Assembly: GCA_963708025.1 (NCBI GenBank)
Contig: CAVPSB010000014.1
Coordinates: 480,001 to 544,000, forward strand
DNA length: 64,000 nt
DNA from: an uncultured Candidatus Rokubacteria bacterium
Lineage (GTDB): Bacteria > Methylomirabilota > Methylomirabilia > Rokubacteriales > DASRDR01
Direction of reading: 5' to 3'
Shown here: positions 4,973 through 30,760 of the stretch, piece by piece
How the letters are laid out: every line of letters begins with the position of its first letter
How positions within the stretch are numbered: the first letter of the stretch is position 1
Made by a program: the position numbers and the translations under genes
Notes under the pieces: generated by a model
Seen by the model: the letters and a program-made list of their open reading frames with translations, nothing else
Told to the model about the DNA's origin: nothing
Databases searched by the model: none

Positions 4973-5222
4973 CTACGGGTTGGGTAGCTCGAGCAATCCG
5001 ACCAGGCGCGCGCGGTCGAACCCCACGACGACTTCTTCCCCGACCACGATCACCGGGACGGCCATCTGACCGGTCCGCCTGATCAGCTCCTCCCGGCCCT
5101 CGACGTCCGTGCGTGACGTCGATGTCGGTGAACGCGACCCCCTTGGACGAAAGAAACTCTTTCGCCGCTTTGCAGGGGCGTCAGGTGGGGGAACTATAGA
5201 CTGTGACAGGCTTTTCAGTCAC
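4973..5222 (-). CDS. Glutaredoxin/NrdH-like selenoprotein (UxxC); absent from the ORF track; one extra base near 5111
   Basis: Manual translation from GTG at 5222: MTEKPVTVYSSPT-U(TGA 5183-5181)-RPCKAAKEFLSSKGVAFTDIDV / TDVEGREELIRRTGQMAVPVIVVGEEVVVGFDRARLVGLLELPNP*. Glutaredoxin motifs (VP, GF) are present and a hairpin follows the UGA. Confidence 0.85.
5139..5183 (-). promoter_or_regulatory. Putative bacterial SECIS element
   Basis: mRNA UGA-CGCCCCUGCAAAGCGG-CGAAAGA-GUU-UCUUUCG-UCCAAGGGG: perfect 7-bp upper stem, G-first apical loop 23 nt after the UGA, CCCCU/AGGGG lower stem. Confidence 0.7.
5146..5221. repeat. Left att site of the island (76-bp direct repeat)
   Basis: Identical to 30685-30760 (GACGAAAGAAACTC...CTTTTCAGTCA). 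Confidence 0.95.
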
Positions 5223-6538
5223 GTGGCGTCCTCCGATATCGGGTCACCATTGGCTGGTTGTTGCGGATTTGTTGCGGATTGTACCGGCCTTGGCGCTCCG
5301 TCGTCGAGCCGATTCACGATCACCCGGCGCCGGGTGGGGACCAGGTGTCCATAGTAGTCCACGGTAATTTTGATGCTCGAATGGCCCAGTTGTTTGCTGA
5401 CATAGTGCAGGATGGCCTCGCCGTCCTGTCCGTGGTCCACCGCCTCAGCGATGAGTCGTGTCGCGTAAGTATGCCTCAACCCGTGCGGTTTCCGGTATCG
5501 AACACGGGCCCGCGACAGGAGTCGCCGCCAGATGTTCGAGAACGTCGTGTGGCCGATGGGTTCTTCGGCTCGGTACCACCCCGAGAGGCGGCGGTGGGCC
5601 TGAACCCGGAAATCTCGTCCTGACGGCGTACGTTTCTCGTGGGCTGTCACCCGGCTCTCGGATGGGGGCGGGAACAACCACGGGCCCGCGGGCCCCTCGC
5701 GCTGACGGATCGCCAGGTAGGCCTCCATGTCCGCGACGAGCTGATCGCTCATGTCCACCCGGCGCACCTGGTGGCTCTTCGGGGCGTTGAATCGAGCGGA
5801 GCCGTGCTTGCGCCCACGCCGGCCCTCCGTCCGGCGCACCCACAGCTGACGCACCGCGAGGTCGACGTCTGCGACCTGGAGGCATCGGCCCTCGCCAGGG
5901 CGAAGGCCGGTCCGGGCAAGCGTCAGTACGAGCACGTAGATCTCGCGTGGGAACTCCGCCCGTGCCACGTCTATGAGCTGGCGCAGCTCCTCCGCGGTGA
6001 ACACGGAGAGCCCCACCTCGCGCCGGCGTTCCACATGGCTCGCAAGGAGGAACCGTCCAGCCCGGGCGGCCGGGTTCGCCTGGAGCAGCCCATCCTCCAT
6101 CGCACTGTTCAGACACGAACGCAGGACGCTCAGGCGGAGTGCACGCGTTTTCGATCTGGTACCACTCTGGCGCATGGCGTCCAAGGCCGTCAGAATCTCC
6201 TCGCGACGGATGGCCGTCAACCTGCGGGAGCCGAGCAGCGGTAGCCAGTGCTTCCGAACGATCCGCTGATAGAGATCGGCAGATCCGATCGCGAGATCCT
6301 CCCGCCGGGCAAGCCACGTTTCGGCGTATCCGGCCAGGGTGACGTCGGAGCCTCTCCTCGCTTCGAGGATTCCGAGATCGTCGAGTGAGAGTCGACGCTC
6401 GAGCTCGGCCGCCGCCAGGTACGCCGCCTTGCGCCCGCCCCGGCCGCGCAGTCGGGTCGAGATACTCTTGCGTTGCCCCTTGTGGTCGACCACGAGATAC
6501 CACATCCCGTTCTTGCGGAGCCGCGGCTTGACGCCCAT
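5219..6538 (-). CDS. int: Tyrosine recombinase / phage-type integrase
   Basis: Catalytic residues intact: RTGLRPGE, PKS, HGLRH, QLGH, YYGH. N-terminal arm-binding-like region and SAM-like core-binding region. Confidence 0.95.
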   Translation of the reverse strand: MGVKPRLRKNGMWYLVVDHKGQRKSISTRLRGRGGRKAAYLAAAELERRLSLDDLGILEARRGSDVTLAGYAETWLARREDLAIGSADLYQRIVRKHWLPLLGSRRLTAIRREEILTALDAMRQSGTRSKTRALRLSVLRSCLNSAMEDGLLQANPAARAGRFLLASHVERRREVGLSVFTAEELRQLIDVARAEFPREIYVLVLTLARTGLRPGEGRCLQVADVDLAVRQLWVRRTEGRRGRKHGSARFNAPKSHQVRRVDMSDQLVADMEAYLAIRQREGPAGPWLFPPPSESRVTAHEKRTPSGRDFRVQAHRRLSGWYRAEEPIGHTTFSNIWRRLLSRARVRYRKPHGLRHTYATRLIAEAVDHGQDGEAILHYVSKQLGHSSIKITVDYYGHLVPTRRRVIVNRLDDGAPRPVQSATNPQQPANGDPISEDAT

Positions 6539-6556
6539 CGTGTGCTCGATCTCGGC

Positions 6557-6826
6557 CTACCGTCCGAGAAACTCGCGCAGCACCGGCGCCACCAGTCGCT
6601 CGACGTCGGATCGACCCTGATTGCGGTACCGGGCTATCCATTCATCGAAATCCGAGCGACGGACCAGGATCTTTCCCTCGACGCGGTAGCACGGGAGCGG
6701 ATGGACTGAGTGGACGAGCCGGTCGCGTAGCCACCGGATCGAGCAGCCCGAGTACGTGGCCAGCGCCCGCAGCGACAGGTAGGGATCCAGCCGCGTCGAC
6801 AGCTCGAGGTTGTCGACCACGACCAA
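6557..6826 (-). CDS. Excisionase / AlpA-like helix-turn-helix protein
   Basis: YLSLRALATYSGCSIRWLR...LPCYRVEGKILVRRSDFDEWI; directly upstream of int. Confidence 0.8.
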   Translation of the reverse strand: MVVVDNLELSTRLDPYLSLRALATYSGCSIRWLRDRLVHSVHPLPCYRVEGKILVRRSDFDEWIARYRNQGRSDVERLVAPVLREFLGR

Positions 6827-6847
6827 CCTTGGCCGGTGGAACGGAGC

Positions 6848-7273
6848 TCAGGGGTCCCTTGAGCCGGCTCCCACTGTTGTGGAGGCTGGTCGTCTGCTCC
6901 GGCCGGATCGCTGACCGTCACGGTATTCCCTCTTCATACCGTCTCGAGACCACGATCGACTCGCCGTGGTCGATATGCTCCTTTCGGGATCGGCACCCCG
7001 TCCCGTCATTGGCCGATCGCCTCCGTGGAGTTCGTTTGCGTGGAGGCAGTGTGGCTTGCATCGGGGCGTTACGTGGATGGCGTGCTGGGCACGCCACGCT
7101 CGGATGGCTTCCTCGTCACTGAGGGTGTCCGCAGAGATGAGAACATCAGTCGCGACGAATGCATTGGCTCGAGAGCCCACTATCAGGACTCCGCACCGCT
7201 GATCTTCGTGCGGTGTCCAGAGAATGGCGGCTCGGAGACTCGGGTCCTCCTGCCGCGTGCCTGTCGCTGCCAT
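6848..7273 (-). CDS. Hypothetical protein
   Basis: ATG-start ORF co-oriented with xis/int; no recognisable motif. Confidence 0.35.
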   Translation of the reverse strand: MAATGTRQEDPSLRAAILWTPHEDQRCGVLIVGSRANAFVATDVLISADTLSDEEAIRAWRAQHAIHVTPRCKPHCLHANELHGGDRPMTGRGADPERSISTTASRSWSRDGMKREYRDGQRSGRSRRPASTTVGAGSRDP

Positions 7274-7328
7274 CTGTCTTCCCGTTGCCCGTTAGGCACA
7301 AGACGCTGCGAGCGTCAGGGGGTGTCCT

Positions 7329-8000
7329 TCACGGAGTACCGTGCTCATCGTCCGGATAGGGCTCGGTTCCTGGCGCAGATCCACCTGGACAGGAGCGATT
7401 CGGATCGGGTGCGTTCCTAGCGGCATTCTTGGCCTTCCGGTGCCCGAACCAAGGAGGCGAAGCGGTCCATGCGGGCGCCAGGGCCCGCTCTGCGTCCGGC
7501 CGGCGCTTGAGGAACGCCGAGAGCGCGCGGCCGTCGGCAGCCAAGAGCGGCCAAGGAGCCGCCCCGGCCTCCGTGGCCGCGCGGAAAACGACTGCGGCGC
7601 TGTAGCGGCCCTTCGTGGGGAAGAAGCCGAGCTCCATGCCGTCGAGGGGGAGGGGCTCGCGATCCTGGCGGTGGTGCCGGAGGCGCTCACGGAGGCGTCC
7701 GACCCGAGCCTCGCCGGCCTGGAGGAGCGCCCCGAGCCGCCGTGTTTCGGTGTCATCGGGGACCGGCGCCTCGTCCACGGCCTCGAGGGCGGCCTGGCCG
7801 GCCGGACACCGGTTCACCCAGGGGCAGGTGCCGCAGGCGGTCGAGGGTCGCGGAGGAAAGGCGGCAGGATCTTCCGGGCGGGCCAGGGCGTCGGCGATGA
7901 CGGCCGCCGTCGTCTGTGCCCAGGCGAGCGTCTCGACGGCGTCCGCTCGGGCGAAGGTCGTCCGGGCGACACGGCCGGTGCGCAGGTCCCAACCCCCAAC
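7329..8000 (-). pseudogene. C-terminal part of a PD-(D/E)XK (RecB/Cas4-like) nuclease; N-terminus missing
   Basis: The frame of ORF 7329..7817 stays open upstream: WDLRTGRVAR...AFPPRPSTACGTCPWVNRCP (CxxC-x5-C). No start codon before the repeat array. Confidence 0.55.
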
Positions 8001-8008
8001 CTGACTCA

Positions 8009-8795
8009 GATCGGTGCCCCGCCCCCGAAGGGGCCCGAAAGCCGACGAGATGGAAGACGAACAGCGGCCCCCCCCACCGGATCAGACCGCCGCCGTCCCA
8101 ACTCGCCACCGACCTCCCACGACAGCGCGCGCGGGAGCCGAACGCGCCACGGTGTACCCCGATGTGTCATGCACGCTCTTTCCTCCGCAACCCGATCGAC
8201 CCAGCCCACCGCGACCCAGGGCGATCCGTCGGACGCCACACTTCGTCCCTCACCGACGGCCCGATCCGCAGGAGACCGGACTGCCACTCCCAACCCGACC
8301 CGACAATCCGACACGATCGCTGACAGACTCCTCCCGAGGGTGACGGGGGCCGACGTCCAAGATCGGTGCCCGCCCCCGAAGGGGCCCGAAGGCCGACGAG
8401 ACGGAAGACGGACAGCGGACCTCCCCACCGAATCAGACCGCCGCCGCCTCAGGCGATCACCGACCTCCCACGGCAACGCGCGCAGGAGCCGAAGGCGCCG
8501 ACCCCTCACCGACGACCGCGTTGCTCGGCCCCGGTCTTCCGCGTCCATCCGACAGCCCGTGGTCACCGCGCCACTCCCACAACCGCGACCCACCGACACC
8601 GCGACACGGCCGCAGGCAGACTCCTCCCGAGGGTGACGGGGGCCGACGTCCACGATCGGTGCCCCGGGCCCGAAGGGCGACGAGAGGGAAGATGAACAGC
8701 GGACCCCCAGCGAATCAGACCGGCGCCGCCCCAGGCCACCGCCGACCTCTCACGGCAGCGCGCGCGGGAGCCGAAGGCACCGACCCCTCACGGAC
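8009..8795. repeat. Three diverged tandem copies of a ~300-350 bp non-coding unit
   Basis: GATCGGTGCCC... starts at 8009, 8361 and 8654. CAGACTCCTCCCGAGGGTGACGGGGGCCGACGTCCA occurs at ~8324 and ~8617. Confidence 0.85.
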
Positions 8796-9071
8796 GATCA
8801 CACCCGCCGCGACGTGGGCGGCCCTGCCCTCCGCATGCCCCGCGCCGATCCGAGGCCCCACGGTCGGACCCCGTCGATCCTCCGGTGCCGCGCGCTGCCG
8901 CCACGCCACTCCACGATTGGTGATCGACTCGCCAGCATAGGAATCTCATTAGGCGTGCCGCTGGGCGGTGCCGCTCGGAGACCCGGCTGGAAGTCGGCGT
9001 CCCTCCAGCGGGTTTTTGATTCGGAGCGCGGCGACGTCGCCCTGACAGGGTGGCTCGTCCTGGCCGGGCCC

Positions 9072-9512
9072 TCAGCGGCGGAACGATCGCAGCAGCCGGT
9101 CGAGCCGGGCATCGGTGTCGGGCCACGGGTCCGGGGACCCGTCTGGCGCGCGCCCGCCATGGGGCGGATCCGGTCGGGTCACGAGCGCCGCCTCGTTCCC
9201 CGAGGCAGGTCCGTGCGATCGCCGATCGGGCCGGGAGGTCGGGACCCCCTCGCCCCCGGCGCGGCCGTCGTCGGCCCCGGGCGCGTGCCGTGACGAGCGC
9301 CCGCACGGCCTGGCGATCAAGAGCGGGACGATCCGCGTGGTGCGCGTCGGGATCGCCGCGCAGCCGGTCCGAAGGACCGCCTTGATGGCCCGGCCGCGCC
9401 CGCTGGGAGGGAGTGCCTAGACCAGGCCGAGGACCTCCAGGTCCTCGGACCGCTCGAGATTGAAGTACACGCTCAGGTAGGTCTGCGACGAAGACGCGCG
9501 AGACACGGTCAT
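9072..9512 (-). pseudogene. Small putative DNA-binding (ParR/StbB-like) protein with an internal TAG at 9419-9417
   Basis: MTVSRASSSQTYLSVYFNLERSEDLEVLGLV*ALPPSGRGRAIKAVLRTG...DARLDRLLRSFRR reads in one frame with ORF 9072..9320. Confidence 0.35.
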
Positions 9513-9565
9513 CGCGCGCGGCGAGCAGGGGGACACGCCGCGGCTCCTGCTGGGGCCATGCTCGG

Positions 9566-9606
9566 CGTCTATCAGATCTCTGATAGACGTCTGATATGAT
9601 TTGATA
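9566..9606. promoter_or_regulatory. Perfect 11-bp inverted repeat with additional TYTGATA iterons (operator or centromere-like site)
   Basis: CGTCTATCAGA-TC-TCTGATAGACG followed by TCTGATA and TTTGATA; AT-rich patch in GC-rich DNA. Confidence 0.55.
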
Positions 9607-9639
9607 CGCTCGCGGCGTCTCGGAGTTCGCCGCCCGGCT

Positions 9640-9930
9640 GCCGGGCGTTCTGGTGTTGACGCTCTCCATTCTCGCGGTCGCGGGCGCGGGAGACGGCTCG
9701 TAGGAGAGCGCGCCGCGCTCCTCGGGGCCGCCCTCTACGCCGCCAACGGGTTCCTCCTCGACCTCGCCGGCGGCCGGGTTGCGACGGACCACATCGACAC
9801 GCTCTTCGTGTCGCTGGTGGCGCTCGGGGCTTTTCTGTCCGTTGACGAGGCCGACGGCGAGCGCGAGGACTGGCGAAAGCTCGTCGGACTCGGCGCGATC
9901 ACGGGGCTCGCTCTCCTGGAGCGCCGCCAA
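9640..9930 (+). pseudogene. Fragment of an ArnT/GT39-like membrane glycosyltransferase
   Basis: GRRLVGERAALLGAALYAANGFLLDLAGGRVATDHIDTLFVSLVALG...GAITGLALL; no intact start or end. Confidence 0.45.
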
Positions 9931-10019
9931 CCCCTGCGCGGTGATCTTGCCCTCCGGCGCGCCGGCCCCGGGTGGGTCCGGCGCCCTGGGGCGGGGAGTC
10001 GACGCAGCGGTTTCCGCCA

Positions 10020-10890
10020 TCACCCCGCTTGGGCGCGGCTCTTCCTTTGCCACGGGACTCGCCCTGCCGGTGTCGAACCCTCACCAAACAGCAAACAGCT
10101 GCAGCTTCCCGAGCGCGCATGGTGCCGGTCGGGACCTGGCGGTCCTTCCGCTGCGCGAGAGGCCGGTCGGCTTGGTTCGCGCTCACCGATCCCGCGCGCA
10201 CGGCATCGACCAGGTCGGGCGGCCGTTCCCGGACGATCCGGTCCAGCTGCCGGGTGGCTCGCTCGCTCATCCCGACCGTCCGTCCTCGCCCACGCTGCGT
10301 GGGGACCGTCGGACCCGAGCCCGCGACGCGTCCACGCCGGAGGTTGGCCGCGCGTCGGTTCACGACGCTGAGCTGGACCTCGGCCTGGGTCAGATCGAGG
10401 ATCAGCCGCCGGAGGTGGGGGGCGTCGATGCGCCGCCGGCCGGCGTCGAGGGCCGCCCTCGTGCTCTCGAGCTGCATGCGGTCGCTCTGCGAGCCCGCCT
10501 CGGGTACGGCGACGAGTCGGACCGGGACCTCCGTCAGGCCGAACGCCCGTGCCAACTCGAGCCGATGCACGCGGTCCACGACGCGCCCGTCCGGCAGGAT
10601 CAGCAACGGGTCCCGGACGCCGGACTCCTTCAGGAGCTGCCGCAGCATCTCCCAGCTCGGCGTTCCGCGGAACGAGGGGATCTCGATGAAGCGGGGCGCA
10701 TACGGTCTGAGCCCTACGACTGACCGCCACTGGATGGGGCCGACCCGGTCGGCGGAGAGCTCCGATGCCCATACCGGGACGGGGATGGCGCCGCCAGGCC
10801 GCCGCCCCCGTCGGGCTCCAGGACTTCCCCGGAGGGTATGGGCGGGGCGTTGCCGCCGAATGCCGGGGCCAGGGAGAGCGGCTCGCTCAT
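10020..10890 (-). CDS. ParB-like N-terminal domain plus HTH protein (frameshifted, ends uncertain)
   Basis: SGVRDPLLILPDGRVVDRVHRLELARAFGLTEVPV and VGMSERATRQLDRIVRE..DLVDAVRAGSVSANQA. Confidence 0.6.
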
Positions 10891-10917
10891 AGTCAGGATG
10901 CCCTCGATGACTACTCG

Positions 10918-11273
10918 TCAGTCCGGTCCCGCGGACGCCGGGGTCCGCCATGGGAGAGATGGGAACGTGACCCGATGGCCGGCACCCCCGATATCGGCGC
11001 AACCGGTGGGCGCTCGGTGCGCCCCCTCGAGCCGCTGGGAGAGGAGCCGACGCGATGTCGCGACCATTGCGCGGATCTCCTCCACTGGCCGGTCGAGGAG
11101 GCGACCGATCTGGTGGGCGGATCGGGCGACATCGTCCTCGAGGCCCCAGTGGAGGGACAGGACGTGCTGGACCTCGGACGACAGAGCCTCGAAGGCGGCG
11201 CGTAGCCGCTCGCGCTCGATGCCTGCGGAGGCGTCTCCGGTCTACGCTGCCGCCGTTGTCGCTCGGTCGCCAT
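10918..11273 (-). CDS. Small sigma-70 region-4-like HTH protein (frameshift near 11221; not in the ORF track)
   Basis: Manual translation IERERLRAAFEALSSEVQHVLSLHWGLEDDVARSAHQIGRLLDRPVEEIRAMVATSRRLL; GGGAGG precedes the ATG at 11273. Confidence 0.55.
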
Positions 11274-11362
11274 GCCTCCCTTTCCGGGAGGCTGGCACCT
11301 CCGACCGCCCACACGTCGCTACGTCCGGGCCACCCTCCCGGGGCAGGATGCCCGACCGGGCA

Positions 11363-11478
11363 GGTGATCACGATGACCGATCTCGGTGATCACGACACCG
11401 ATCCCGGTGGTCATGATCGACCGATCTGGGTGATCACGATGGACCGATCCTGGTGCTCACGATGGGCCAAGACGCGCA
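11363..11478. mobile_element. Orphan IS21-family-like terminal repeat array
   Basis: Five 21-23 bp units GGTGATCACGATG(G)ACCGATC ending in ...ACGCGCA; no istA/istB nearby. Confidence 0.6.
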
Positions 11479-11661
11479 CAAGGTCCGCGTCACTACAGCG
11501 TCCCCGTCGTCTAGGCTAGCCTACTAGGACCCGAGATTTTCAATGGGCGGGCGGCGCCTGCACTTCCAGATACTTCCGGCCGGCTTTGGACGTCGGGTTG
11601 TAGCTCTCGTGACAGTTCTGCCATAATCCCGAGGGGATGGCCGACACGGCTTCGGTCGGTC

Positions 11662-21237: not shown

Positions 21238-21379
21238 CTCGGGGCGTTGCATGATCACTCGGCGAGTTTCGATGAGTGAAGGGCGGCGCGCGGTTACGGT
21301 CCTCGCGCTGCGCACGGGCGCGCCTGCCGCGGGGCAGGCGCCGCCGGCCCGGCTGAACCAACCGGAGAAGGAGACCAGG

Positions 21380-22163: not shown

Positions 22164-22182
22164 CACCAACAGGAGGAAGCAA

Positions 22183-22676
22183 ATGAAGACGATGCTCAAG
22201 ATCGCCGTAGTCGCCACTACCCTTGTCTTGATGCTCATGGCCGATGTGCCGCTTCTGCCCGTGCAACTGGTGCCCGAAGCGCACGCGATCCTCGGCGTCC
22301 GGCGCCGCACGCCGTCGTGGTCGGGGCCGCAGTCCACGCTGCGGATTCGGCCCAGATGGCCCAGGCCCAGCAGCAGGCGGCCGCGGCCCAACAGCAGGCC
22401 GCCGCCGCCCAACAGCAGGCCGCCGCGGCCCAACAGCAGGCCGCGGCCGCTCAGCAGCAGGCTGCCGCTGCCAGCAGCAGGCCGCCGCAGCGCGTCCCGC
22501 TCCGCCGCCTGCAGCCGCCGGGACACCGTTGCCGCTGGGCACCGTCGTTGTCCGCCCTTCCCGCAGGTTGCGTCTCCACGCCGGTCGGCGGCGTGGAGTA
22601 CTACTACTGCGGCGGCAACTTCTATCGCGCGGTGTTTCAGGGGAACACCCTGGTGTATGTGACGGCGCAGCCGTAA
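22183..22676 (+). CDS. Exported Q/A-rich protein with a DUF6515-like C-terminus (frameshifted)
   Basis: 21-bp QQQAAAA repeats; LPAGC...GGVEYYYCGGNFY. Confidence 0.6.
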
Positions 22677-22971
22677 TGAAAAAGACAGGCGAACCTGGCC
22701 CGGAACCCGGCGGTCCTGGCGAGCGGAGTGAGCCCGGTCGTCGCGGCGGTCGAGGAGGTCCGCCGTATTCTCGGGCTGCACGCACGTCTGAGGAGGACCA
22801 CGAGTGAACGCCAAGGGCGAGGTCCTCATCTGAGGACCAGGAGGGCACCGGTGGGTGGAGGGAAGCCGCAGTAAGTCGCGCCATCACGCGATCGTAGCGC
22901 AGGGTCAGGGACGAGGCAGCGGAGCCGTGGCCGCAGGGAGCGTTCACCATGTCAGTGACAAGGAGGGGCGG

Positions 22972-23677
22972 ATGAGCCGAAGATGCGTTCTGATGAGAGG
23001 GGTCGTCGGTGTGCTGGCGGCCCTATTCGTGGCGGCCGGGACGATGCCCGCGTTCGCCGACGACACCGCGGATGCCAAGGAGCTGGTGGAGAAAGCTAAG
23101 CTCACCATCGAGAAGTTCTCGACCGATCCTGCCATGAGCGGCTTTCGCGACGCGGTGAAGCGGGCTAAGGGCGTATTCATCTCGCCCCAGGTGCTTCGGG
23201 GCGCGTTCATCATCGGGGTCTCGGGAGGCAGCGGCGTGCTTCTGGCGCGGGAGGAAAAGGGGAACCAGTGGGGAGGACCGGCGTTCTACACGGTCGGTGA
23301 GGCGAGCTTCGGCCTCCAGGCCGGGGGCGACGCGCAGGAGGTGGTGCTGCTCGCGATGACGGAGCGCGGCGTGACCAAGCTCCTGTCGGCCACCACCAAG
23401 CTCGGCACCGATGCCAGCGTGGCCGGGGGACCGGTCGGCGCGGGAGTGACGGCCGAGACCGGGCCTGAGCGCGGACATCATCAGCTTCGCGCTGAGCAAG
23501 GGGGTGTTTATCGGCGTCTCACTCGAAGGGGCGGTGGTCGGGGTCCGCGGGGTCCTGAACAACGCCTACTACGGCAAGGAGGTCAACCCCACCGATATCC
23601 TGATCCGCCAGACCGTCAAGAACCCACAGGCGGCGCCGCTGATCGCGGCGGTCGCCAAGGTGGCCGGCGGGAAGTGA
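22972..23677 (+). CDS. Lipid-binding SYLF (Ysc84) domain protein (frameshift near 23462)
   Basis: AKGVFISP...GAFIIGVSGGSGVL, SFGLQAG, N.AYYG. Confidence 0.85.
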
Positions 23678-24257
23678 GCCGCCGGTCTTCGGGCTCGAGC
23701 GACGATCCGGGCGTGGGCTGTGACGGCCGGAAGGCTCGGGCCCGGAGGCGAGCAGAGTCAGGGCGGCGTGCCGGGGACGGGCGGGGAGGCGTCGAGAACG
23801 CGGGAGCGCGATGTGTCGTGACACCGTGATGCCCCGGATCGACCCGTCAAGGGGCGGGACAGCCCCTCTTCGATCATGCATCAGATGTCCGGCCCGCGCC
23901 GTCTCCGCGCGCCAGCGGGATTCTCGACGAGAGGACGGTTGACCTCAGGCAAGGATGGTAGCGGTGGCTGATGGAAGGCATGGCGATGAGCACAGCGGAC
24001 GTGCCGCAAGGATGGAGGCTGAAGGAGTGAGCCAGTGACGAACGCTCGCGCGAGTCGATCCCGAACGGTTGACGGTTGGCGGATCGGTTGAGGTCTGGCC
24101 GACCGCCCGGATGACGCCGTGGTGGCCGTTCCCTATCGGGGCAAGATCGGCAAGGTGACGATCGAGCTGAAGGACGTGGAGACTGCCGATCCTCGCGAGG
24201 ATCAGCACGTCACAGGCTCGCCGCCATGAATAGGGCGCGGGCCGATTGACACGTCCG

Positions 24258-25290
24258 ATGGTGTGGCTGGGGCGCCTCCTGGTGGGGCTCGGGTGCAGCG
24301 TCGTGCTCGGATGGATGGCGCTGGCCATCTACTTCGACTTCTCGCGGCTCGGGCCCCCGTGGCTCCGCGCCGGGCTCGGCGTTCTCGTACCGGTGGGCGC
24401 GCTGGTCGCTCTCTGGCTCGTGCGCCCGCGCCGGCGGGCGCTCGCCGGGATCCTGGGGGCGTTCGTCGTGGTCCTCGTCACGTGGCTCGCCATCCCGCCG
24501 TCCAACGAGCGGGACTGGCAGCCCGACGTGGCAACGCTGGCCTTTGCCGACATCCACGGCGATCGCGTGATCGTGCACAACGTCCGCAACGCCGAGTACC
24601 GGACCGAGACCGACTACACGGTGCGCCTCGAGGATCGCGCGCTGGACCTCTCGAAGCTCCGCTCCCTGGATCTCTTCCTCGTCCACTGGGGATCGCCCCT
24701 CATCGCCCACACGATCATGAGCTGGGGGTTCGAGGGCGATCGGTACCTGGCCATCTCGATCGAGACGCGCAAGGAGAAGGGCGAGCAGTACTCGGCGCTG
24801 CGCGGGTTCTTCCGCCAGTACGAGCTCGTCTTCGTGGTCGCGGACGAGCGCGACGTCGTGCGCCTCCGCACGAATGTCCGCGGCGAGGACGTCCACGTCT
24901 ACCGGCTCGACGCGCCCCCCGCGGACGCTCGCGCGCTGCTGCTCCGGTACCTCGAGGAGGTCAACCAGCTGCGCGAGCGGCCCCAGTGGTACAACGCGCT
25001 GACGGACAACTGCACGACGGCGATCCAGCGCCTCGCCCGGGTCGGGCGCCCGCCGGTCGTGGTGGAGCTGGAAGCTCTTCCTGAACGGCTACCTCGACGA
25101 GCTGGCGTACGACATCGGCGCCATCGATCGCTCCCTGCCGTTCTCCGTCCTCAAGGCGAAGAGCCACATCAACGAGCGGGCCAAGGCCGCCGACGACGAC
25201 CCACGATTCTCGGTCCGGATCCGGGACGGGCTTCCTCGGATGTCCCGCGACCGCGGCGAGGCGATGACGCTCAGGGATGGAGCGGCGATG
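24258..25290 (+). CDS. DUF4105 (Lnb N-terminal-like) membrane protein (frameshifted, end approximate)
   Basis: PSNERDWQ, AHTIMSWGF, SIETRKE, YNALTDNCTT. Confidence 0.8.
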
Positions 25291-27188
25291 AGCTCCGACG
25301 TGCGGCTGCGCCCGCATCGGCTCGCGCTCGTCTCGGCGCCCTCGGGCTCTGGCGCCTGGCGGCCTGCGCGGGCCCGGTGGGCACGGTCCGGGTCGACCCC
25401 AAGGTCGTCCATCGCCACCTCGGCCGGAGCGCCATCACGACGGGCGAGCCGAGCCTGGCCCGACGCGCAACCTGCTCTTCGAGCGCGGTCTGCTTCGAAG
25501 CCTTCGACGAACGCCCGGAGGCCGCCATTGCCGAGCTGCACCGGGCGATGGTCGCGGCGGGGGGGGACCCGGACCTGCTCTTCGCCCTCGCCGAGCTCTC
25601 CTTCCTCCACGGCCAGGCGACCACGAAGCCCGACTACCACCTGGCCGCGGCCGTCTACGCCTACGCCTTCCTGTTCCCCGAAGGGCCCGGGTGCGCTCCC
25701 CGGGCGGTTCGACCCGCGCCTGCGGATCGCGGCGGATCTCTACAACTGGGCGCTCACGGCGAGCCTTCGCCTCGGAGGACCGCTCGGAGGTCGTCCCGCG
25801 GGGCGGCACGTTCACGCTGCCCTTCGGGCCGATCGAGGTGGCGTTCGATCCCGCCGCGCTCCGCGCCGGGGATCGGGAGCTCTACCGGTTCATCGCCGAC
25901 CGCGGAGCTGGAGGTGCACGGGCTGGCCATGCGGTATCGCTGGCCGGGCCTCGGCGCCCCGCTCGCCGCCTCCACCCGGCCCATCGATGCCTCGAGACCC
26001 GGCCGGGACCTGGTGGCGCCGCGGCTCCAGGTGCCGGTGACGGCCCTGCTCCGGATCGCCGAGGCCCGGCACGCCCTCGTGCAGGGGCGCCCGCTCGCGG
26101 GCACGCTCGAGCTCCACCTGGCCTGGGACGCGGAAACGGTCTCGATCGCCGGCGAGCCGGTCCCGCTCGAGAACGAGCCGACGGCGGCGCTCGCGCTCAC
26201 GTTCACCGGCGTGCCGATCATGGAGCTCGAGCTGCTCGGGTTCCTGGGCCGGCTGACCGGGCTGATGCGCAGCGGCCCCCGCTCGTCTCCGCCACGCCGT
26301 ACCGTCCCGGGCTCATCCCCGTGGTCTTCGTGCACGGCACGGAGTCGAGCGTGGTCCGCTGGGTGGAGATGTACAATCGTCTGCTGGCCGATCCCGAGAT
26401 CCGCAGCCGCTTCCAGTTCTGGTTCTTCCAGTACGATTCCGGCCAGCCCATCGCGCTGTCCTCTCTCCACCTGCGCGAGGCCCTGACGGCGGCGGTGGCG
26501 CGGCTCGACCCCGAGGGCAAGGACCCGGCCCTGCGCCGGATGGTCCTGATCGGGCACAGCCAGGGGGGTCTGCTGGTCAAGATGCAGGTCATCAGCAGCG
26601 GTGATCGGCTCTGGAACGCGGTCAGTCGCAAGCCGCTCGATCAGCTGGTCCTGTCCGACCACGACTCGCGACCTGCTCCGGCGTGGGCTGTTCGTCGAGC
26701 CGCTGCCCGAAGTCTCTCGCGTGGTGTTCATCTGCACGCCGCATCGGGGCAGCTTCGTCGCCGGACGCCATATCATCGCCAACCTCGTCCGGCGACTCCT
26801 GACCCTGCCCTTCGCTCTCACCGGGGTGGCGGCGGACATCGCCCGGAACCCGGACGCCCTGGCGAGCGGGGTGAGCCCGGTCGTCCCGTCGGCGGTCGAC
26901 AACATGTCGCCGCGTCACCCCTTCCTCCGGGCCCTGCAGGAGATTCCCGTCGCCCCGTCCGTCACGGTCAACTCCATCGTCGCGGTCGAGGGGGACGGGC
27001 CGGTCGAGCAGGGCAACGACGGCGTGGTGGAGTACTCGAGCGCCCACATCGAGCCGGTCGAGTCCGAGCTGGTCGTGAAGTCGAGCCATTCCACGCAGGG
27101 CAATCCCCACACCATCGAGGAGGTCCGCCGCATTCTCCGGCTGCACGTGGGTCTGACGACGGGCACGGTCCCGCTGGAGGCCCGATGA
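25288..27188 (+). CDS. Alpha/beta-hydrolase (esterase/lipase) lipoprotein (several frameshifts, start approximate)
   Basis: PVVFVHG, GHSQGG nucleophile elbow, TPHRGS, DGVVEYSSAH. Confidence 0.8.
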
Positions 27189-27271
27189 CCGCCGAGGACC
27201 ATGGCCGGGAAACACGACCATGCCACCCGATTCGTCGTGGTCGTCATGTCGATCCAGGAGGACTCACGCAC

Positions 27272-27847
27272 ATGAAGAGCTCCGTCGTGGGAATACTGAG
27301 TCTCGCCGCCGTCCTGGTGGGATCGGTGGTTTCGGCGCTCGGCCCGGCCGCCCTGGCTGGCGAGCTAGCGGGCGTGACGCTGCCCGACACGCTGAAGGCC
27401 GGCGAGAAGACGTTGAAGCTGAACGGGCTGGGCCTCAGGAAAAAGGCCGTGTTCGAGGTCTACGTGGGCGGGCTGTACCTCGAATCACCCTCCAAGGACG
27501 CGGCCGCCATCCTCACGGCCGACCGGGCGAAGGCCATCCGCATGCATTTCCTGCGCGATCTGACGAAGGCGCAGCTCGTCGAGGCCTTTCAGGAGGGCTT
27601 CGAGGCCAACGTGAAGGACCGGGCCCCCCAGAAGGCCGCGTTCGACAGGATGCTCGCGCTCGTGCCCGACGTGAAGATTGGCAGCACGCTGACGTTCACG
27701 TACCTGCCGGGAAAAGGCACGACGCTCTCTGCCGGGAGCAATGAGCTGGGTGTCTTCGAGGGGAAGGGGTTCGCGGACGCGGTCTTCGCGATCTGGCTGG
27801 GTCCCAAGCCGCCTACCGAGGATCTGAAGAAGGGGCTGCTGGGCTGA
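27272..27847 (+). CDS. Chalcone-isomerase-like (fatty-acid-binding fold) exported protein
   Basis: LKLNGLGLRKK..F.VYVGGLYL, F.IWLG..P...LKKGLLG. Confidence 0.85.
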   Translation: MKSSVVGILSLAAVLVGSVVSALGPAALAGELAGVTLPDTLKAGEKTLKLNGLGLRKKAVFEVYVGGLYLESPSKDAAAILTADRAKAIRMHFLRDLTKAQLVEAFQEGFEANVKDRAPQKAAFDRMLALVPDVKIGSTLTFTYLPGKGTTLSAGSNELGVFEGKGFADAVFAIWLGPKPPTEDLKKGLLG

Positions 27848-28030: not shown

Positions 28031-30491
28031 GTGATCGTCACGGTGTCGCTGGCCCAGATGCTCCTCGGCGTCCTCCTCCTGTTGACGCCCGTGGTCCGCG
28101 GCGAGGCGGCGGACCAGAAGGCGTCGGCTCCGCAAGAAGCGACGGTCCCGGCGCCGCCGCCGTTCCCGGCGATCCCACTCGCCGAGGTGGCGCCGCAGGC
28201 CACGGAGATGGAGGCGCTCCTGCGCGCCTATCGGACGCTGCAAGCCTCCACGCCGGCGACCTCGATGATCGAGAAGCAGCTTCCCGAGGCCAGCGCCCTC
28301 ATCAGCCGCGAGCTCGAGCGGACGCTGAGCCTCCTGCGGGAGCAGCCGACGCTCGAGACGCTCGAGGTGAAGCAGGAGCTCTGGGCAAGGCGGCAGCTCC
28401 TGACAACCACCTGGCTGGGTGCGCTCACGCGACGGGTCATCCACCTGCAGGAGGCCCTGACCCGCCTGGCGGACCAGCATCAGACGTGGACCCAGACCCA
28501 GGATGCCGCGCGTGCGGCAAAGGCGCCGGAGCCGATACTCGGGCAGATCGCCGAGGTTCTCGCCGCGATCGAGGCCGCACAGACGCCCCTGCAGGCCCAG
28601 CGCGCGGTCGCGCTCGAACTCCAGAGCCGTGTCGCCCGGGAGGTGGCCCGCTGTCAGACCGCCTTGGCGCAGGTGGCCGAGGCGCAGCGGCAAGCGGTGG
28701 GAGGGCTCCTGGAGCCGGAGCGCCCGCCGATCTGGAACACCCAGTGGTGGGTGGGCGCGCGGACCGTCAACGCTCGCAACGTCCGCGATATCGCCGCCGA
28801 CTGGTGGCGCGCGGTGATCCAGCACCTCCGCGATCCCGCCAACGGCCTGAAGGCGCATGCGGCACTCTTGGTGATCCTGGCCGCCTTGCTGTGGGCGGCA
28901 CGGCGCTGGACCCATGGTTCGGTCGCCATGGAGGGCGCCTCGTTCGCGACCGCGGTGTTCGATCGTCCCTTCTCCGCCGCGCTGCTCATCGGCCTGGTCA
29001 GCCATCCCTTCGTCTATGGCCCGGCGGGCCCGGAGACGCGGCAACTGTTCCAGGTCGCGCTGCTGGTCCCGGTGATCCGGCTGACGCGACCGGTCGTGGA
29101 CCCGCACGTGTTCCCTGGCCTCCTCGTGCTGGCAGCCGTGTTCACCCTTGATACCGTCCGAAGAGCCGCCGGCACGCTGGCGATCGAGCCAGCGATCCTG
29201 TCGGTGGAGATGCTCGCCGGGCTGCTCGGGCTGGGCTACACCCTGACGGTTGGGCCTCTCCGGCGCCCGCCTGCGCGGGATGCCGAGTCGGAGCGGTTGC
29301 GCGCCACTCGGGTGGTCGGCGCCCTCATTCTGGTCGTTGTTCGCCGCCGCGCTGGTGTGCACGGTCCTCGGGTACCTGCGCCTCGGGCGTGTGATCGCCT
29401 CCGGCGTGCTCGGCAGCGTCTTCCTGGCGCTCGTGCTGAGGCCCGTCGTCCGGGTGATCACCGGTCTGGTCGCGCTGACGCTCCGCATGTGGCCGGTCCG
29501 GCTCCTCCGGATGATCGAGCATCACCGCGACCTCCTCGAGCGCCGCACGCACCGCGTGCTGGTCTGGCTTGCGGTCGGCGTGTGGCTCACCCGCTCGCTG
29601 GACTACGTCGGCGTGCTGGGGCCGGCGCGGACGCTCGGGCAAAGCCTGCTCGGTGCCAAGCTCGAGCGGGGCGCGCTCAGCATCTCCGTCGAGGACGTCC
29701 TGGCCTTCGCGCTCACGCTGTGGGTCGCGTACCTGCTGTCCGCCTTCCTTCGCTTCGCACTGGAGGAGGACGTCTATCCCCGCGCTGGCCTGGCCCGCGG
29801 CTTGTCCTATGCCCTCTCGAGCCTGCTGAACTACGTCCTCCTCACCGTGGGCTTCCTGGCGGGCCTGGCGGTCCTGGGGCTGGACCTCACGAAGCTGACC
29901 ATCATAGCCGGCGCGTTCGGCGTCGGGATCGGCTTCGGCCTGCAGAGCGTGGTGAACAACTTCGTCTCGGGGCTGATCCTGCTCTTCGAGCGGCCGATCC
30001 ACGTCGGCGATACCATCGAGGCGGGCGGGATCACGGGGAGCGTGCGCCGGATCGGCATCCGCTCGAGCGTGGTGCGCACCGGGCAAGGGGCCGAGATCAT
30101 CGTCCCCAACGCGCAGCTCGTCACGGAACGGGTGACGAACTGGACGCTCAGCGATCGACAACGGCTCATCGAGCTGCCGGTGGGCGTGAGCTACAGCGCG
30201 CATCCCAAGAAGGTCATGGAGATGCTGGAAACGGTGGCGCAGGCACACCCCCAGGTGTTGCGGCAGCCACCGCCCAGGGCGTTCTTCACGGGCTTCGGCG
30301 ACAGCTCGATCAATTTCGAGCTGCGAGCCTGGACGGACCAGTTCGACCAGTGGTTCCAGATCCGGAGCGAGCTGGCCGCGGCCGTGTATGATGCGGGCCA
30401 GGCGGCCGGGATCTCGTTTCCCTTTCCCCAGCGCGAGGTGCGTCTGCTTCAGGACCCCTCGGCCCGGCCCGCTGCGGGCCCGGTACCCTAG
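28031..30491 (+). CDS. MscS/MscK-family mechanosensitive channel (frameshift near 29335)
   Basis: GVGIGFGLQ..VNNFVSGLILLFERPI.VGD, IIVPN, FGDSSINFEL. Confidence 0.9.
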
Positions 30492-30684
30492 AGAAGCTCG
30501 GCACGGCCGCCCCGGCCGGCGAGCTGGCGGACGCGACGTTGCCCGACACGCTGAAGGCCGGCGAGACCCGCACAGGGGCAAAGTGCTCCTGGAAGACCTG
30601 TTGCGGATTTGTTGCGTCTCCTGCCGCAGACTGCCGGGAAATGCCGACCAGAGAGCGAGAAGTTACCGTTACTTAGCGTGGACC

Positions 30685-30760
30685 GACGAAAGAAACTCTT
30701 TCGCCGCTTTGCAGGGGCGTCAGGTGGGGGAACTATAGACTGTGACAGGCTTTTCAGTCA
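30685..30760. repeat. Right att site (76-bp direct repeat; displaced 5' end of the glutaredoxin gene)
   Basis: Identical to 5146-5221. On the minus strand it is preceded by GAGGAG and an ATG at 30761. Confidence 0.95.

Follow-up and report, generated by a model that had tools for sequence, protein, structure and literature searches.

Which feature of a selenoprotein gene can serve as the attachment site of an integrative element? The question is raised by a locus of Candidatus Rokubacteria (phylum Methylomirabilota), in which the 5′ part of a glutaredoxin gene occurs at both ends of a 25.5-kb island. We analysed a window of 64,000 nucleotides, the whole stretch of DNA presented here, and give positions in the window unless stated otherwise.

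An island bounded by two copies of the start of a glutaredoxin gene

A repeat search identified one two-copy family, a direct repeat of 76 nt with 100% identity (5146–5221 and 30685–30760, 25,539 bp apart), and whole-genome blast returned no third copy of the block. Read on the minus strand, the repeat starts at the second base of the glutaredoxin start codon (gTG in the left copy, aTG in the right one) and contains the first 25 codons of the gene, with an in-frame UGA and a 9-bp hairpin. Its end (5146 and 30685) is 2 bp beyond the dyad CGAAAGA-N3-TCTTTCG (5148–5164) and coincides with that of a longer dyad, G(G/A)CGAAA-GAGTTTC-TTTCGTC (5146–5166). A first-pass annotation had claimed that an exact 76-bp repeat bounds the island, and that it spans the gene from start codon to UGA and ends within 2 bp of the dyad; the repeat search bore out the former and reading of the sequence the latter.

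The integrase-proximal att copy (5146–5221, minus strand) covers the glutaredoxin GTG start (5220–5222), codons 2–25, the UGA and the upper hairpin of the presumed SECIS, and continues into the rest of the gene. It overlaps the integrase stop codon TGA (5219–5221). The distal att copy (30685–30760, minus strand) lies 3′ of a GGAGAG Shine-Dalgarno and an ATG (30760–30762); downstream of it follows island DNA, giving a dead-end ORF (...KEFLSSVHAK, then TAA). In a relative (G013), window 4300–5216 matches G013:C13:455753–454800 and window 30685–30984 matches 454870–454565, so that both flanks are contiguous around a single block copy, as in an empty site. Because that genome has the flanks side by side with one copy, the interval is an insertion. 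Together with an integrase, an Xis-like protein and arm-type repeats at both ends, this empty site supports the assignment of 5146–30760 as a site-specific integrative island.

The target gene (4965–5222, minus strand, ~85 codons) encodes a glutaredoxin-family selenoprotein, whose orthologue matches Pfam Glutaredoxin (E 2.3e-18). Its in-frame UGA, the Sec codon of the UxxC motif SSPT-U-RPC, lies at 5181–5183, with a second copy at 30720–30722. Glutaredoxin matches were found in 201 of 251 genomes of the phylum; among the matches listed, nearly all orthologues retain the UGA and one (G011) is a Cys orthologue of this gene, in a genome with no integrase match. As assembled, the window gene has a 1-nt frameshift caused by an additional base at 5112, a position not covered by the repeat, and the orthologue match splits in two; a variant without this base is present in contigs of run X4. 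The target gene of G015 is also frameshifted, by an extra C before the UGA. Because of the frameshifts in these two genes, restoration of the target gene may not be functional. The conserved left-flank neighbour, a TPR-repeat protein gene (Pfam; 3541–4920, plus strand), is convergent with the glutaredoxin gene and syntenic in relatives.

Integrase, candidate arm-type sites and cargo

The tyrosine integrase (439 aa; 5219–6538, minus strand) was assigned by Pfam Phage_integrase (E 6.7e-19) and its homologues. Its stop TGA overlaps the glutaredoxin GTG, and a GGAGGA Shine-Dalgarno for glutaredoxin lies within its last codons. Immediately upstream of it, an 89-aa HTH_17 protein (6557–6826, minus strand; Pfam E 4.8e-7) is, judging by family and position, likely an excisionase or AlpA-type regulator.

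The integrase gene contains, in its 3′ end, two CGCAAC repeats 11 nt apart (5259–5276, minus strand), at a distance of 103 nt from the centre of the dyad. The same two repeats recur in direct orientation near the far end of the island (30599–30616, minus strand), starting 68 nt past the att block, with 18/18 identity. We propose that they are candidate arm-type sites of the P and P′ arms, respectively. Their position is kept in both integrase lineages described below: they stand 103 nt (two lineage-1 loci) or 112–113 nt (four lineage-2 loci) from the dyad centre. Unlike this constant spacing, the ATG-to-UGA distance varies between the targets of the two lineages (39 versus 60 nt).

Pfam scans of the island body (5222–30684) identified PAS/GAF/HisKA/HATPase sensor pieces (11662–15004), a LuxR-type response regulator (14919–15584), a receiver protein (15705–16103), an OMP beta-barrel (16610–17110), DUF1254/DUF1214 (18051–19655), DUF2092 (21131–22186), Lnb_N (24246–26486), a chalcone-isomerase-like protein (25691–27847) and an MscS channel (29250–30491). 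No Pfam family was matched by the four ORFs located between 6848 and 11371, nor was any phage-structural or conjugation family matched among the island ORFs scanned.

Recurrence of the target among integrase relatives

In all six cases that include the integrase 3′ end and downstream DNA (the window, G020:C39, G015:C1, G020:C5, G020:C75 and a G012:C11 fragment), a block copy immediately follows an integrase, whole or fragmentary, of at least 72% identity; a seventh homologue, G020:C6, is interrupted by the contig end and falls outside this count. Three to four block copies occur in G012 and G020, as in tandem arrays. In 5/5 contigs with downstream DNA (L049, L136, L138, L143 and L161), integrases of a sister lineage (41–47% identity) precede, in the same arrangement, a second selenoprotein gene that is a paralogue of the first. 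The sites of the integrase homologues, a check proposed with the first-pass annotation, thus spoke for the proposed target, with close homologues at this gene in 6/6 readable cases and the sister lineage at another selenoprotein gene with nearly the same dyad. The longest stretch common to both target genes is the dyad GACGA[A/G]AGAGTTGCT[T/C]TCGTC. A dyad common to the two genes is expected from paralogy alone.

More distant relatives (27–35% identity) have a complementary-strand tRNA gene 3′ of the integrase in 21/34 genome loci and 35/80 metagenome loci. In L066/G251, a 60-nt repeat, its copies 59 kb apart, covers the first 3 nt of the tRNA-Leu T-loop and stops there. This end is the block edge far from the integrase, ~52 nt from the integrase stop; the corresponding distance in the window is 63 nt. 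The wider clade is thus tRNA-targeting, and its one mapped block has the T-loop at its end.

Position of strand exchange

We propose the following mechanism. The integrase would recombine the island attP with the 5′ part of the Sec-glutaredoxin gene, the island bringing its own Shine-Dalgarno and GTG start and the first 25 glutaredoxin codons, with both the UGA and the 5′ half of the SECIS hairpin. The most likely place of strand exchange would be the dyad GACGAAA-GAGTTTC-TTTCGTC, the upper stem of the SECIS, in the apical loop region that makes up its 7-bp centre (GAGTTTC). The integrated gene would join a front supplied by the island to a back supplied by the host, each contributing one arm of the re-formed hairpin, and the host's own front end, displaced, would persist as a dead-end fragment where the island ends on the other side. 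In the window, the proposed recombination core is the dyad GGCGAAA-GAGTTTC-TTTCGTC, which corresponds to the upper stem and loop of the SECIS, with 7-bp arms and a 7-bp centre (5146–5166, minus strand; the same 21 nt at 30685–30705).

On balance, we favour a crossover at the SECIS dyad. The two repeat copies appear homogenised and polymorphism mapping is therefore ambiguous, for which reason the crossover position stays an inference. The earlier interpretation stood as to a site-specific island, a UxxC glutaredoxin target and a SECIS at the repeat edge; its placement of strand exchange in the dyad is the favoured but still putative reading. Comparing the window block with the island-type block of genus g5, identical runs of at least 7 nt are confined to positions 27–34, 36–53 and 58–76, which excludes the vicinity of the start codon for any crossover that depends on identity in the overlap. 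The common dyad boundary of types A, B and C counts as one observation, not three, because their far ends are homologous.

A possible, if less probable, alternative retains the same island, gene and SECIS and places the exchange elsewhere in the 76-bp block, the hairpin then marking no more than the end of the host DNA copied in the island, or acting as an outer core-type binding site. The likeliest such sites are the invariant stretch at the UGA and second Cys codon (positions 36–53, window 5169–5186), which is as invariant as the dyad among the blocks compared, or positions 27–34. Supporting this alternative, G020:C39 and G015:C1 have integrase genes that are 99.5% identical (100% in the last 300 nt), and their integrase-linked blocks differ at 4/56 positions before the dyad (20, 32, 54 and 56), against ~0.3 differences expected if this segment were purely island-borne. 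Alleles at 54–57 vary by host: G015 has AAGCTG, as do G004, G017 and G010, and G020:C39 has AAACAG, as does the promoter-linked copy G020:C13. Moreover, at the G020:C5 junction (72% integrase), identity reaches only position 56 and is lost before the dyad. The allele in both window copies is K-A-A, the host type seen in genera g2, g3 and g7, and not the K-Q-T of the 94%-identical islands. Such allele patterns would need either gene conversion between copies or a crossover further upstream. However, the 76/76 identity of the window copies indicates that homogenisation occurs, which weakens the linkage argument under either model. By sequence reading, there is no dyad symmetry around positions 27–53, and an exchange there would leave the far-side identity to position 76 with no restoring function, yet this identity persists until precisely the last base of the dyad. 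In the one relative mapped, too, the block has a stem-loop at its far edge.

Present-day mobility

A crossover at the dyad, like one elsewhere in the block, is compatible with a fossil element, once site-specific and now immobile, in which the 76-bp identity comes from gene conversion in a fixed insertion; this reading rivals only the claim of an active system, and we consider it somewhat doubtful. Pointing to it are the frameshift in the target gene, an apparently split sensor kinase (13783–14529 and 14477–15004), remnants of integrases that precede the gene in G013, G018 and G012, and the absence of junction evidence for excision, with no attP or attB junction reads recovered and no junction information obtained from contigs. 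Against it, the integrase and HTH_17 ORFs are open and full-length. Furthermore, recent transfer is indicated by the integrase DNA, which shares 93.7% identity with copies in another genus, against only ~75% for the genes that flank them. The element may still be mobile.

The hairpin as a probable bacterial SECIS

The hairpin at the repeat edge folds with a GUU loop and a 9-bp stem 23 nt past the UGA (MFE −21.7 kcal/mol), and agrees with all four criteria of the bSECIS consensus, as given in the part of PMC13188914 available to us. Its stem uses codons that are rare in this genome (71% GC): across 1,616 long ORFs, AAA accounts for 2.9% of its codon family, TTT for 3.4% and CTT for 2.3%. Despite these codons, AAAGAGTTTCTTTCG is near-invariant among 50 Sec sequences, and the G011 Cys orthologue has AAGGCCTTCCTCACCTCG in its place; only Sec forms retain the rare codons, which are lost in Cys forms of both genes (G011; G151). 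In the covariation analysis, 94.9% of cells were paired and 3 pairs had double changes, which 0/500 shuffles reached. The second gene has clear compensatory stems (GACGAAAG/CTTTCGTC, GACGAGAG/CTCTCGTC and GACGCGAG/CTCGCGTC). Consistently, the genome has complete Sec machinery, with selA, selB, selD and a tRNA-Sec reported at 206334–206431 (contig coordinates), and the same source, as far as available, describes a Methylomirabilota MAG with 63 predicted selenoprotein genes.

It is very improbable against this evidence that the hairpin is instead kept as a DNA site or by protein-coding constraint on K-E-F-L-S, with the UGA read otherwise or no translation past it, although Rfam SECIS families gave no match to the hairpin, the stem varies little, its covariation rests on 7 cells in 3 pairs, and the evidence is non-experimental. 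The earlier SECIS reading is thus credible and well supported by consensus fit, rare-codon conservation, compensatory changes, loss in Cys forms and Sec machinery.

Relation to known integration sites

In sublocation classes that Williams is said to have described in Nucleic Acids Research in 2002, tyrosine integrases reportedly cross over in the T-loop or anticodon loop of tRNA and tmRNA genes. Islands of such integrases carry the displaced gene end. The integrase studied here is homologous to them at 27–35% identity and has tRNA-adjacent relatives; in L066, the identity block likewise runs from near the integrase stop, there to the T-loop, and, like its tRNA-targeting relatives, the island has CGCAAC-type repeats within the 3′ end of its integrase gene and a block whose far edge is a stem-loop dyad. 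In contrast to those stable-RNA genes, the target here is an element of a protein-coding mRNA, constrained at both protein and RNA level, and the island replaces the 5′ end of the gene (promoter, start codon and active-site Sec codon) and not the 3′ end. Given that the other targets of the clade are tRNA genes, and that in the one relative mapped the block stops in the T-loop, the SECIS would be a new member of a class of DNA dyads, frozen by RNA-structure constraint, which these integrases exploit.

Enterobacterial pathogenicity islands integrate in selC, the tRNA-Sec gene. In both cases a Sec-decoding component is the target of tyrosine-integrase islands; selC is a tRNA gene, whereas the target here is a cis-acting SECIS in a selenoprotein mRNA. 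Phage 21 and e14 integrate in icd, a protein-coding gene, and restore the displaced end. As in icd-type elements, the identity block reaches an exact gene boundary, here the start codon, so that coding sequence is kept; unlike in those, the restored part contains a recoding signal.

TIGER/Islander surveys cover islands and prophages in protein-coding genes with a restored end (PMC12424338, as partly available). In the literature searched, much of it available in part and the surveys' supplementary target tables excepted, no selenoprotein gene or SECIS was named as an integration target, and a SECIS hairpin does not seem to have been described as one before. The attB of phiEf11 in ffs, the 4.5S RNA gene, was recently reported as a new class of structured-RNA attB (PMC12540744, in the part available); we liken it to the island by its structured-RNA target alone, not by integrase family, and ffs, unlike the mRNA element here, is a non-coding RNA gene.

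Sec-containing UxxC glutaredoxins are described in Geobacter, Clostridia and Moorella (PMC1794560 and PMC13188914, each in the part available). Those parts link no mobile element to them, and the present family differs in being phylum-wide in Methylomirabilota; it shares with them the Pfam Glutaredoxin fold, the UxxC motif and, 3′ of the UGA, a bSECIS.

A site-specific island bounded by repeats from a selenoprotein gene

A repeat search of positions 4000–32000 returned a two-copy, 76-nt repeat of 100% identity (76/76) at 5146–5221 and 30685–30760, and inspection of both copies confirmed the coordinates and description given in the first-pass annotation. A BLAST search of the whole 8.17-Mb assembly found just these two copies and no third. 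Read on the minus strand, the block starts with the last two bases of the start codon of the selenocysteine (Sec) glutaredoxin gene (4965–5222), encodes V-T-V-Y-S-S-P-T, an in-frame TGA and R-P-C-K-A-A-K-E-F-L-S, and ends on the final base of the dyad GGCGAAA-GAGTTTC-TTTCGTC (5146–5166). Upstream of the left copy lie the final codons of a 439-aa open reading frame (ORF), whose stop TGA overlaps the GTG start of the glutaredoxin gene; GGAGGA stands 6 nt upstream of this GTG, and the copy runs on into the remainder of the glutaredoxin-like gene. Ahead of the right copy stand GGAGAG and an ATG; past its end the DNA is unrelated to the gene, and a TAA comes six codons further on.

An uninterrupted site was found in a related genome: the relative G013 carries a single block with the left and right flanks of the window contiguous around it, so 5222–30684 is an insertion. 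With end repeats, one of them at an integrase gene, and an uninterrupted site in a relative, the 25.5-kb segment has the attributes of a site-specific integrative island. Assembled contigs of four public sequencing runs (about 0.65 of the sampled words) were placed on 4300–24299, an interval that ends short of the right island end; in their noisy, multi-strain cover no joint or loose end was seen at 5146 or 5221.

The 439-aa ORF (5219–6538, minus strand), whose stop falls within the left repeat copy, matches Pfam Phage_integrase (PF00589, E 6.7e-19, residues 179–398), and matches to the integrase central and SAM-like N-terminal domains lie below the cut-off. In the alignment with homologues, PHGLRHT and LGHSSIKITVDYYGH are conserved, which we take to be the catalytic residues (the HxxR box and the C-terminal LGH...Y segment); the ORF has the characters of a tyrosine (lambda-type) integrase. 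Directly upstream of it is an 89-aa HTH_17 protein, probably of the excisionase/AlpA kind (6557–6826, Pfam). Inside the 3′ end of the integrase gene, an 18-nt string at 5259–5276 contains CGCAAC twice, 11 nt apart, and a second copy of the string lies in the same orientation at 30599–30616, 68 nt beyond the far-end block. In lambda-type attP sites, arm-type sites flank the core on both sides. By analogy, the CGCAAC repeats at both island ends have the layout of arm-type sites around a core.

The hairpin in the block as a predicted SECIS element

The dyad forms a hairpin that is very probably a SECIS element. The genome that contains the island carries adjacent selB and selA genes, selD and a tRNA-Sec gene (ARAGORN). 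With U read as C, the glutaredoxin orthologue matches Pfam Glutaredoxin (PF00462, E 2.3e-18) and contains the motif SSPT-U-RPC; the orthologue combines the fold and the UxxC active site of a Glutaredoxin-family selenoprotein, the window's own copy being frameshifted. The orthologue query has matches in 201 of 251 genomes of the phylum (a tally that includes five genomes marked unpublished), and nearly every listed match has exactly one in-frame TGA, the match in G011 having none. The pattern N-CGAAAGA-GTT-(T/C)CTTTCG lies 17–18 nt 3′ of the TGA in all of 49 Sec-type orthologues and paralogues compared. A 52-nt stretch folds at −21.7 kcal/mol (z −2.3 against shuffles). Its upper stem has 9 bp, and its loop, GUU (or AGUUU should the uppermost A-U pair open), lies 23 nt after the UGA; the loop begins with GU, and G30 and U31 are invariant in 50 sequences. 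As set out in PMC13188914, the bSECIS consensus has a loop of 3–9 nt on an upper stem of 4–16 bp, a G within the loop's first two positions with, in most cases, G or U after it, 16–37 nt between UGA and apical loop, and a minimum free energy of −7.5 kcal/mol or lower; the hairpin agrees with all four consensus criteria found there.

In the 50-sequence alignment, pairing is kept in 94.9% of cells, with changes on both sides in three pairs (7 cells); none of 500 shuffles reaches the observed pairing values, and slid registers pair in 46–68% of cells. Because the stem varies little, covariation alone is a modest argument for the hairpin, and codon use is the stronger one. Among the 1,616 long ORFs of the genome, AAA makes up 2.9% of Lys codons, TTT 3.4% of Phe codons and CTT 2.3% of Leu codons. 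The string AAA-GAG-TTT-CTT-TCG for K-E-F-L-S has a joint expectation of 8e-6, yet it is near-invariant in the Sec forms. The sole Cys orthologue seen (G011) reads AAG-GCC-TTC-CTC-ACC-TCG and has no hairpin. Binding of SelB and insertion of Sec at the hairpin are predicted indirectly, from the presence of selB, selA, selD and tRNA-Sec and from the loss of the hairpin in Cys forms. An Rfam scan of 4900–5300 contained no SECIS family at E up to 10; its three microRNA/sRNA matches, at 4931–4987, fall on the terminator and were discarded as chance.

The selD gene (G000:C7:91381–92304, in the island's own genome) has an in-frame TGA and would itself encode a selenoprotein; a TGA-free selD-like gene is found at C23:88505–89419.

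Recurrence at the glutaredoxin gene

The first-pass annotation had proposed testing whether homologous integrases also lie at selenoprotein genes. The outcome was favourable in two lineages: of the loci with downstream DNA, six of six in the lineage of the window integrase (lineage 1) adjoin the glutaredoxin gene, and five of five in a sister lineage (lineage 2) adjoin a second selenoprotein gene. Among 183 genomes of the order, five contain an integrase matching at E 1e-40 or better, and the matches above 60% identity added by a scan of the whole collection came from uncultured Candidatus Rokubacteria bacterium only. In lineage 1, a block copy directly follows the integrase gene in every close homologue with both its 3′ end and downstream DNA, at loci that are not fully independent because their genomes all belong to one bacterial family. 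Besides the window, these are G020:C39 (95%), G015:C1 (95%), G020:C5 (72%), G020:C75 (86–95%, its upstream part cut by the contig end) and G012:C11 (a 51-aa fragment); the integrase on G020:C6 is cut by the contig end and stands outside the count. Three block copies are spread over 34 kb on G012:C11 and four lie on different contigs of G020, as expected for tandem arrays or mixed strains. Remnants of integrase C-termini were found just upstream of otherwise uninterrupted glutaredoxin genes in G013 (L024, G013:C13, 1431–1676; 35% identity over 82 aa) and G018 (L018, G018:C5, 1257–1423; 65% identity over 37 aa). They look like fossils of older integrations at this site, which therefore has a long history of use.

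Three types of sequence follow the far-end block: A in the window and on G012:C9, B twice on G012:C11, and C on G020:C13 and C75. All three diverge from the gene within 2–5 nt of the 3′ end of the dyad; since they are mutually homologous, they represent one inherited boundary rather than three independent ones. At the type-D junction on G020:C5, identity extends no further than position 56 of the block (counted from 1 at the start codon to 76 at the dyad end), and ABC-transporter genes come next, with no adjoining transposase. A separate integrase for the type-B far end was sought on G012:C11 among the ORFs upstream of the full gene and not found; their products are an alpha/beta hydrolase, an ABC transporter and a SET/ATP-grasp protein.

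Two further arrangements were seen near block or gene. In the middle of a 312-kb contig, L037 (G012:C9:213570–213646) joins the last ~45 nt of an integrase gene to a block and a type-A far end; its block has an extra A in the 5′ arm of the hairpin, no glutaredoxin gene is nearby, and the arrangement is a remnant of attP-like or tandem-junction type away from its usual setting. The distance from the TPR gene to the glutaredoxin 3′ end is 45 bp in the window, 22 kb in G009 (C66, 7263–30066) and 3.5 kb in G017 (C149, 5364–9672), the latter two being insertions on the other side of the glutaredoxin gene.

A sister lineage at a second selenoprotein gene

The lineage-2 integrases are 41–47% identical to the window integrase and fall between it and the tRNA-targeting relatives in the alignment. 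Their layout is the same in all five contigs with downstream DNA (L049, which is G003:C188, L136, L138, L143 and L161, with L143 and L161 nearly identical): a Shine-Dalgarno sequence and the ATG of the second selenoprotein gene lie within 0–50 nt of the integrase stop. This gene (L049, G003:C188:1058–1804; G000:C19:253464–254198 in the window's own genome) encodes a 249-aa fusion with a glutaredoxin-like N-terminal part, a C-terminal part that is DinB-like by eye, and the motif R-(P/Q)-G-U-S-S-C. Most genomes have one copy of it, and it is conserved: 151 of 183 genomes of the order give a match (three unpublished genomes included), nearly all with one TGA. The window's own genome has the gene on contig G000:C19, where no integrase belonging to this family was found.

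The hairpin of the second gene, GACGA(A/G)A-GAGTTGC-T(T/C)TCGTC, has the compensatory variants GACGAAAG/CTTTCGTC, GACGAGAG/CTCTCGTC and GACGCGAG/CTCGCGTC, and in the Cys form of G151 it is degraded and common codons are used. In metagenome contigs, its arms are identical to those of the first target, with a single-base difference in the centre; no stretch common to both targets is longer than the dyad. The last CGCAAC repeat is 103 nt from the dyad centre at two lineage-1 loci and 112–113 nt at four lineage-2 loci, and this spacing holds though the distance from ATG to UGA differs by 21 nt between G003 and the metagenome contigs. A second copy of the lineage-2 block was not found in G003, an assembly of about 1,070 contigs.

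Relatives at tRNA genes

Distant homologues (27–35% identity) mostly have a complementary-strand tRNA gene next to them. Among genome loci, a tRNA gene lies 22–119 nt past the end of the integrase match in 21 of 34 cases (18 Leu, 2 Phe, 1 Ala); among metagenome loci, it was found in 35 of 80, many others having too little downstream DNA. One such relative, L066 (G251), is bounded by a 60-nt direct repeat with its second copy 59 kb away. Starting near the integrase stop, the identity takes in the 3′ flank, CCA, acceptor strand and T-stem arm and ends 3 nt into the T-loop of tRNA-Leu, the classical T-loop integration site. This edge of the block is the one far from the integrase, about 52 nt from its stop, and in the window the dyad centre lies 63 nt from the integrase stop. 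CGCAAC-type repeats are also present in the integrase 3′ ends of tRNA-targeting relatives. Candidate second att copies for the tRNA-Leu relatives L068 and L079 amounted to a 20-nt inverted match and a weak spacer match and were left out.

For intermediate integrases on G115:C58, G020:C18 and contigs C16 and C11 of the window's own genome, neither a tRNA gene nor the hairpin was found downstream. In a third group, comprising L050 (G115:C58), L141 and L149 (38–43% identity), the integrase adjoins the 3′ end of an opposite-strand gene whose product looks, by eye, like a sigma-54-dependent activator and which may be another protein-gene target.

Position of strand exchange

Of the earlier interpretation, the island, its target and the SECIS prediction proved solid; crossover in the hairpin is favoured, and polymorphism mapping was ambiguous. 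The proposed descent of the integrase from a tRNA-targeting clade and the second selenoprotein target add new support. We lean towards strand exchange within the dyad, that is, in the SECIS hairpin, as the somewhat likelier but unproven location. On the side where the front of the gene comes from the island, identity ends precisely at the start codon, so exchange would be expected at the other edge of the block. Recombination cores usually consist of inverted arms around a centre. The dyad has 7-bp inverted arms around a 7-bp centre, and the final base of its outer arm is also that of the block. In addition, the dyad is common to the sister lineages, the spacing of the arm repeats is tied to the UGA/dyad region and not to the start codon, and the block of the one mapped tRNA-targeting relative ends in a stem-loop at the same relative place. 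Finally, the window block and the island-type block of genus g5 have 7 or more identical nt in a row only at positions 27–34, 36–53 and 58–76. With integrase genes 93.7% identical in hosts that have flanks of about 75% identity, an element able to transfer needs its overlap within one of these runs.

Exchange elsewhere in the block, chiefly at positions 36–53, is a less probable alternative. In favour of exchange outside the dyad, the integrase genes of G020:C39 and G015:C1 are 99.5% identical, with the last 300 nt identical, and their blocks differ at positions 20, 32, 54 and 56; downstream, the host parts are 77% identical. The window's identical block copies, moreover, both carry host-type K-A-A codons and not island-type K-Q-T. 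The block patterns of these three loci require gene conversion between copies under every model, and once gene conversion is granted, marker linkage says little about the crossover; we therefore set polymorphism mapping aside as a means to fix its position. Between G020:C13 and C75, identity over the 4.4 kb downstream is 97.1%. Eight of their first 57 block positions differ: five lie in the first 12 nt, and the others (30, 33 and 54) are within background.

Other cases share the remaining probability; crossover close to the start codon was rejected, as positions 1–20 contain no identical run of at least 7 nt between the window and g5 island-type blocks, and the distance from arm repeat to dyad is conserved and the position of the start codon is not.

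A recoding signal as a proposed integration target

Integrative elements favour tRNA and tmRNA genes, a preference usually ascribed to the freezing of short DNA dyads by RNA structure in many hosts. The island resembles tRNA-targeting islands in that it works in the same way and its integrase belongs to such a clade; it differs from them in its probable target, a cis-acting recoding signal that lies in coding sequence and at a gene's 5′ end. A SECIS element would be new in kind as an integration target, although this gene may be listed as a target somewhere: the full-text literature, searched with few subscription journals and without the TIGER/Islander target lists, returned no report of a SECIS or a selenoprotein/glutaredoxin gene as attB. 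PMC12540744 presents ffs as a novel attB, which suggests that new classes of structured-RNA target are still reportable.

We tentatively propose that a clade of tyrosine integrases switched its target from tRNA T-loops to SECIS hairpins in selenoprotein mRNAs, with exchange in the SECIS apical loop. At each integration, a 5′ arm brought by the island and a 3′ arm supplied by the host would then be joined into a working recoding element. Compensatory pairs make the stem differ from host to host, as observed in the second target gene. If this is true, island and host arms must match for the selenoprotein to survive integration, SECIS stem variants would be a host-range determinant for the island, and recoding signals, not stable-RNA genes alone, would be conserved landing pads for mobile DNA. 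A SECIS hairpin used like tRNA sites would independently test the idea of frozen dyads, and would add a class of attachment site constrained jointly by protein sequence and recoding RNA structure. The two related integrase/target pairs, in two paralogous selenoprotein genes, form a natural set usable for studies of specificity shifts.

The islands would also tie mobile DNA to the selenoproteome of Methylomirabilota; a 2026 review credits a metagenome-assembled genome of this phylum with the largest predicted bacterial selenoproteome (PMC13188914). For annotation, pipelines that do not read UGA as Sec will miss islands bounded by what appears as a 'stop-codon-containing' gene fragment.

A frameshift in the rebuilt gene

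As assembled, the window's glutaredoxin gene shifts frame after D-I-D-V-T owing to one extra base at 5112, a feature absent from the first-pass annotation, and a protein search splits the gene into two matches. Without this base the gene reads D-V-T-T-D-V-E-G-R, like its orthologues. In run X4, contigs lack the base (depth 32.7 of 48, three contigs); in runs X1–X3, contigs over 5112 show no such deletion (depth 5–11), but these runs may be the source of the assembly and so offer no independent proof of the frameshift. At E 1e-8 or better, no further copy of the gene turned up in this genome. As assembled, the rebuilt gene here is broken by a frameshift outside the repeat.

Single-base insertions occur in two of three full integrase-linked glutaredoxin copies, at 5112 in the window and as an extra C just before the UGA in G015; the copy on G020:C39 is intact, and no indel was seen in the 54 nt around the UGA among 49 aligned orthologues. 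These insertions could reflect relaxed selection after integration, or assembly error.

Island cargo

According to Pfam, the cargo includes PAS/GAF/HisKA/HATPase sensor pieces, two receiver proteins, an outer-membrane beta-barrel, DUF1254/DUF1214, DUF2092 and Lnb_N proteins, a chalcone-isomerase-like protein and an MscS channel. No phage structural or lysis, relaxase or type IV secretion family was found among the 30 window ORFs scanned; with these hallmark families absent, the island was not classed as a prophage or an integrative conjugative element. The viral contig collection held no relative of the integrase, and four ORFs at 6848–11371 had no Pfam family match.

The contigs listed for the assembly have a GC content of 71%. 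The highest GC of the window profile (73%) is at 8018–8781, a stretch with no family match in which a 131-nt unit occurs three times (100/86/60%) together with a 72-nt pair (89%), at spacings of 282–351 nt. A 21-nt tandem repeat of the GCCCAACAGCAGGCCGCCGCC type (translated A-Q-Q-Q-A-A-A) lies at 22365–22469 in four overlapping 42-nt copies. Diverged duplications (83–90% identity) link 22688–22802 with 26831–27167 and 27337–27407 with 30496–30566, which suggests paralogous gene ends. Finally, a histidine kinase is spread over two overlapping ORFs (13783–14529 and 14477–15004), one with its PAS/HisKA part and the other with its HATPase_c part, possibly a further frameshift in the cargo.
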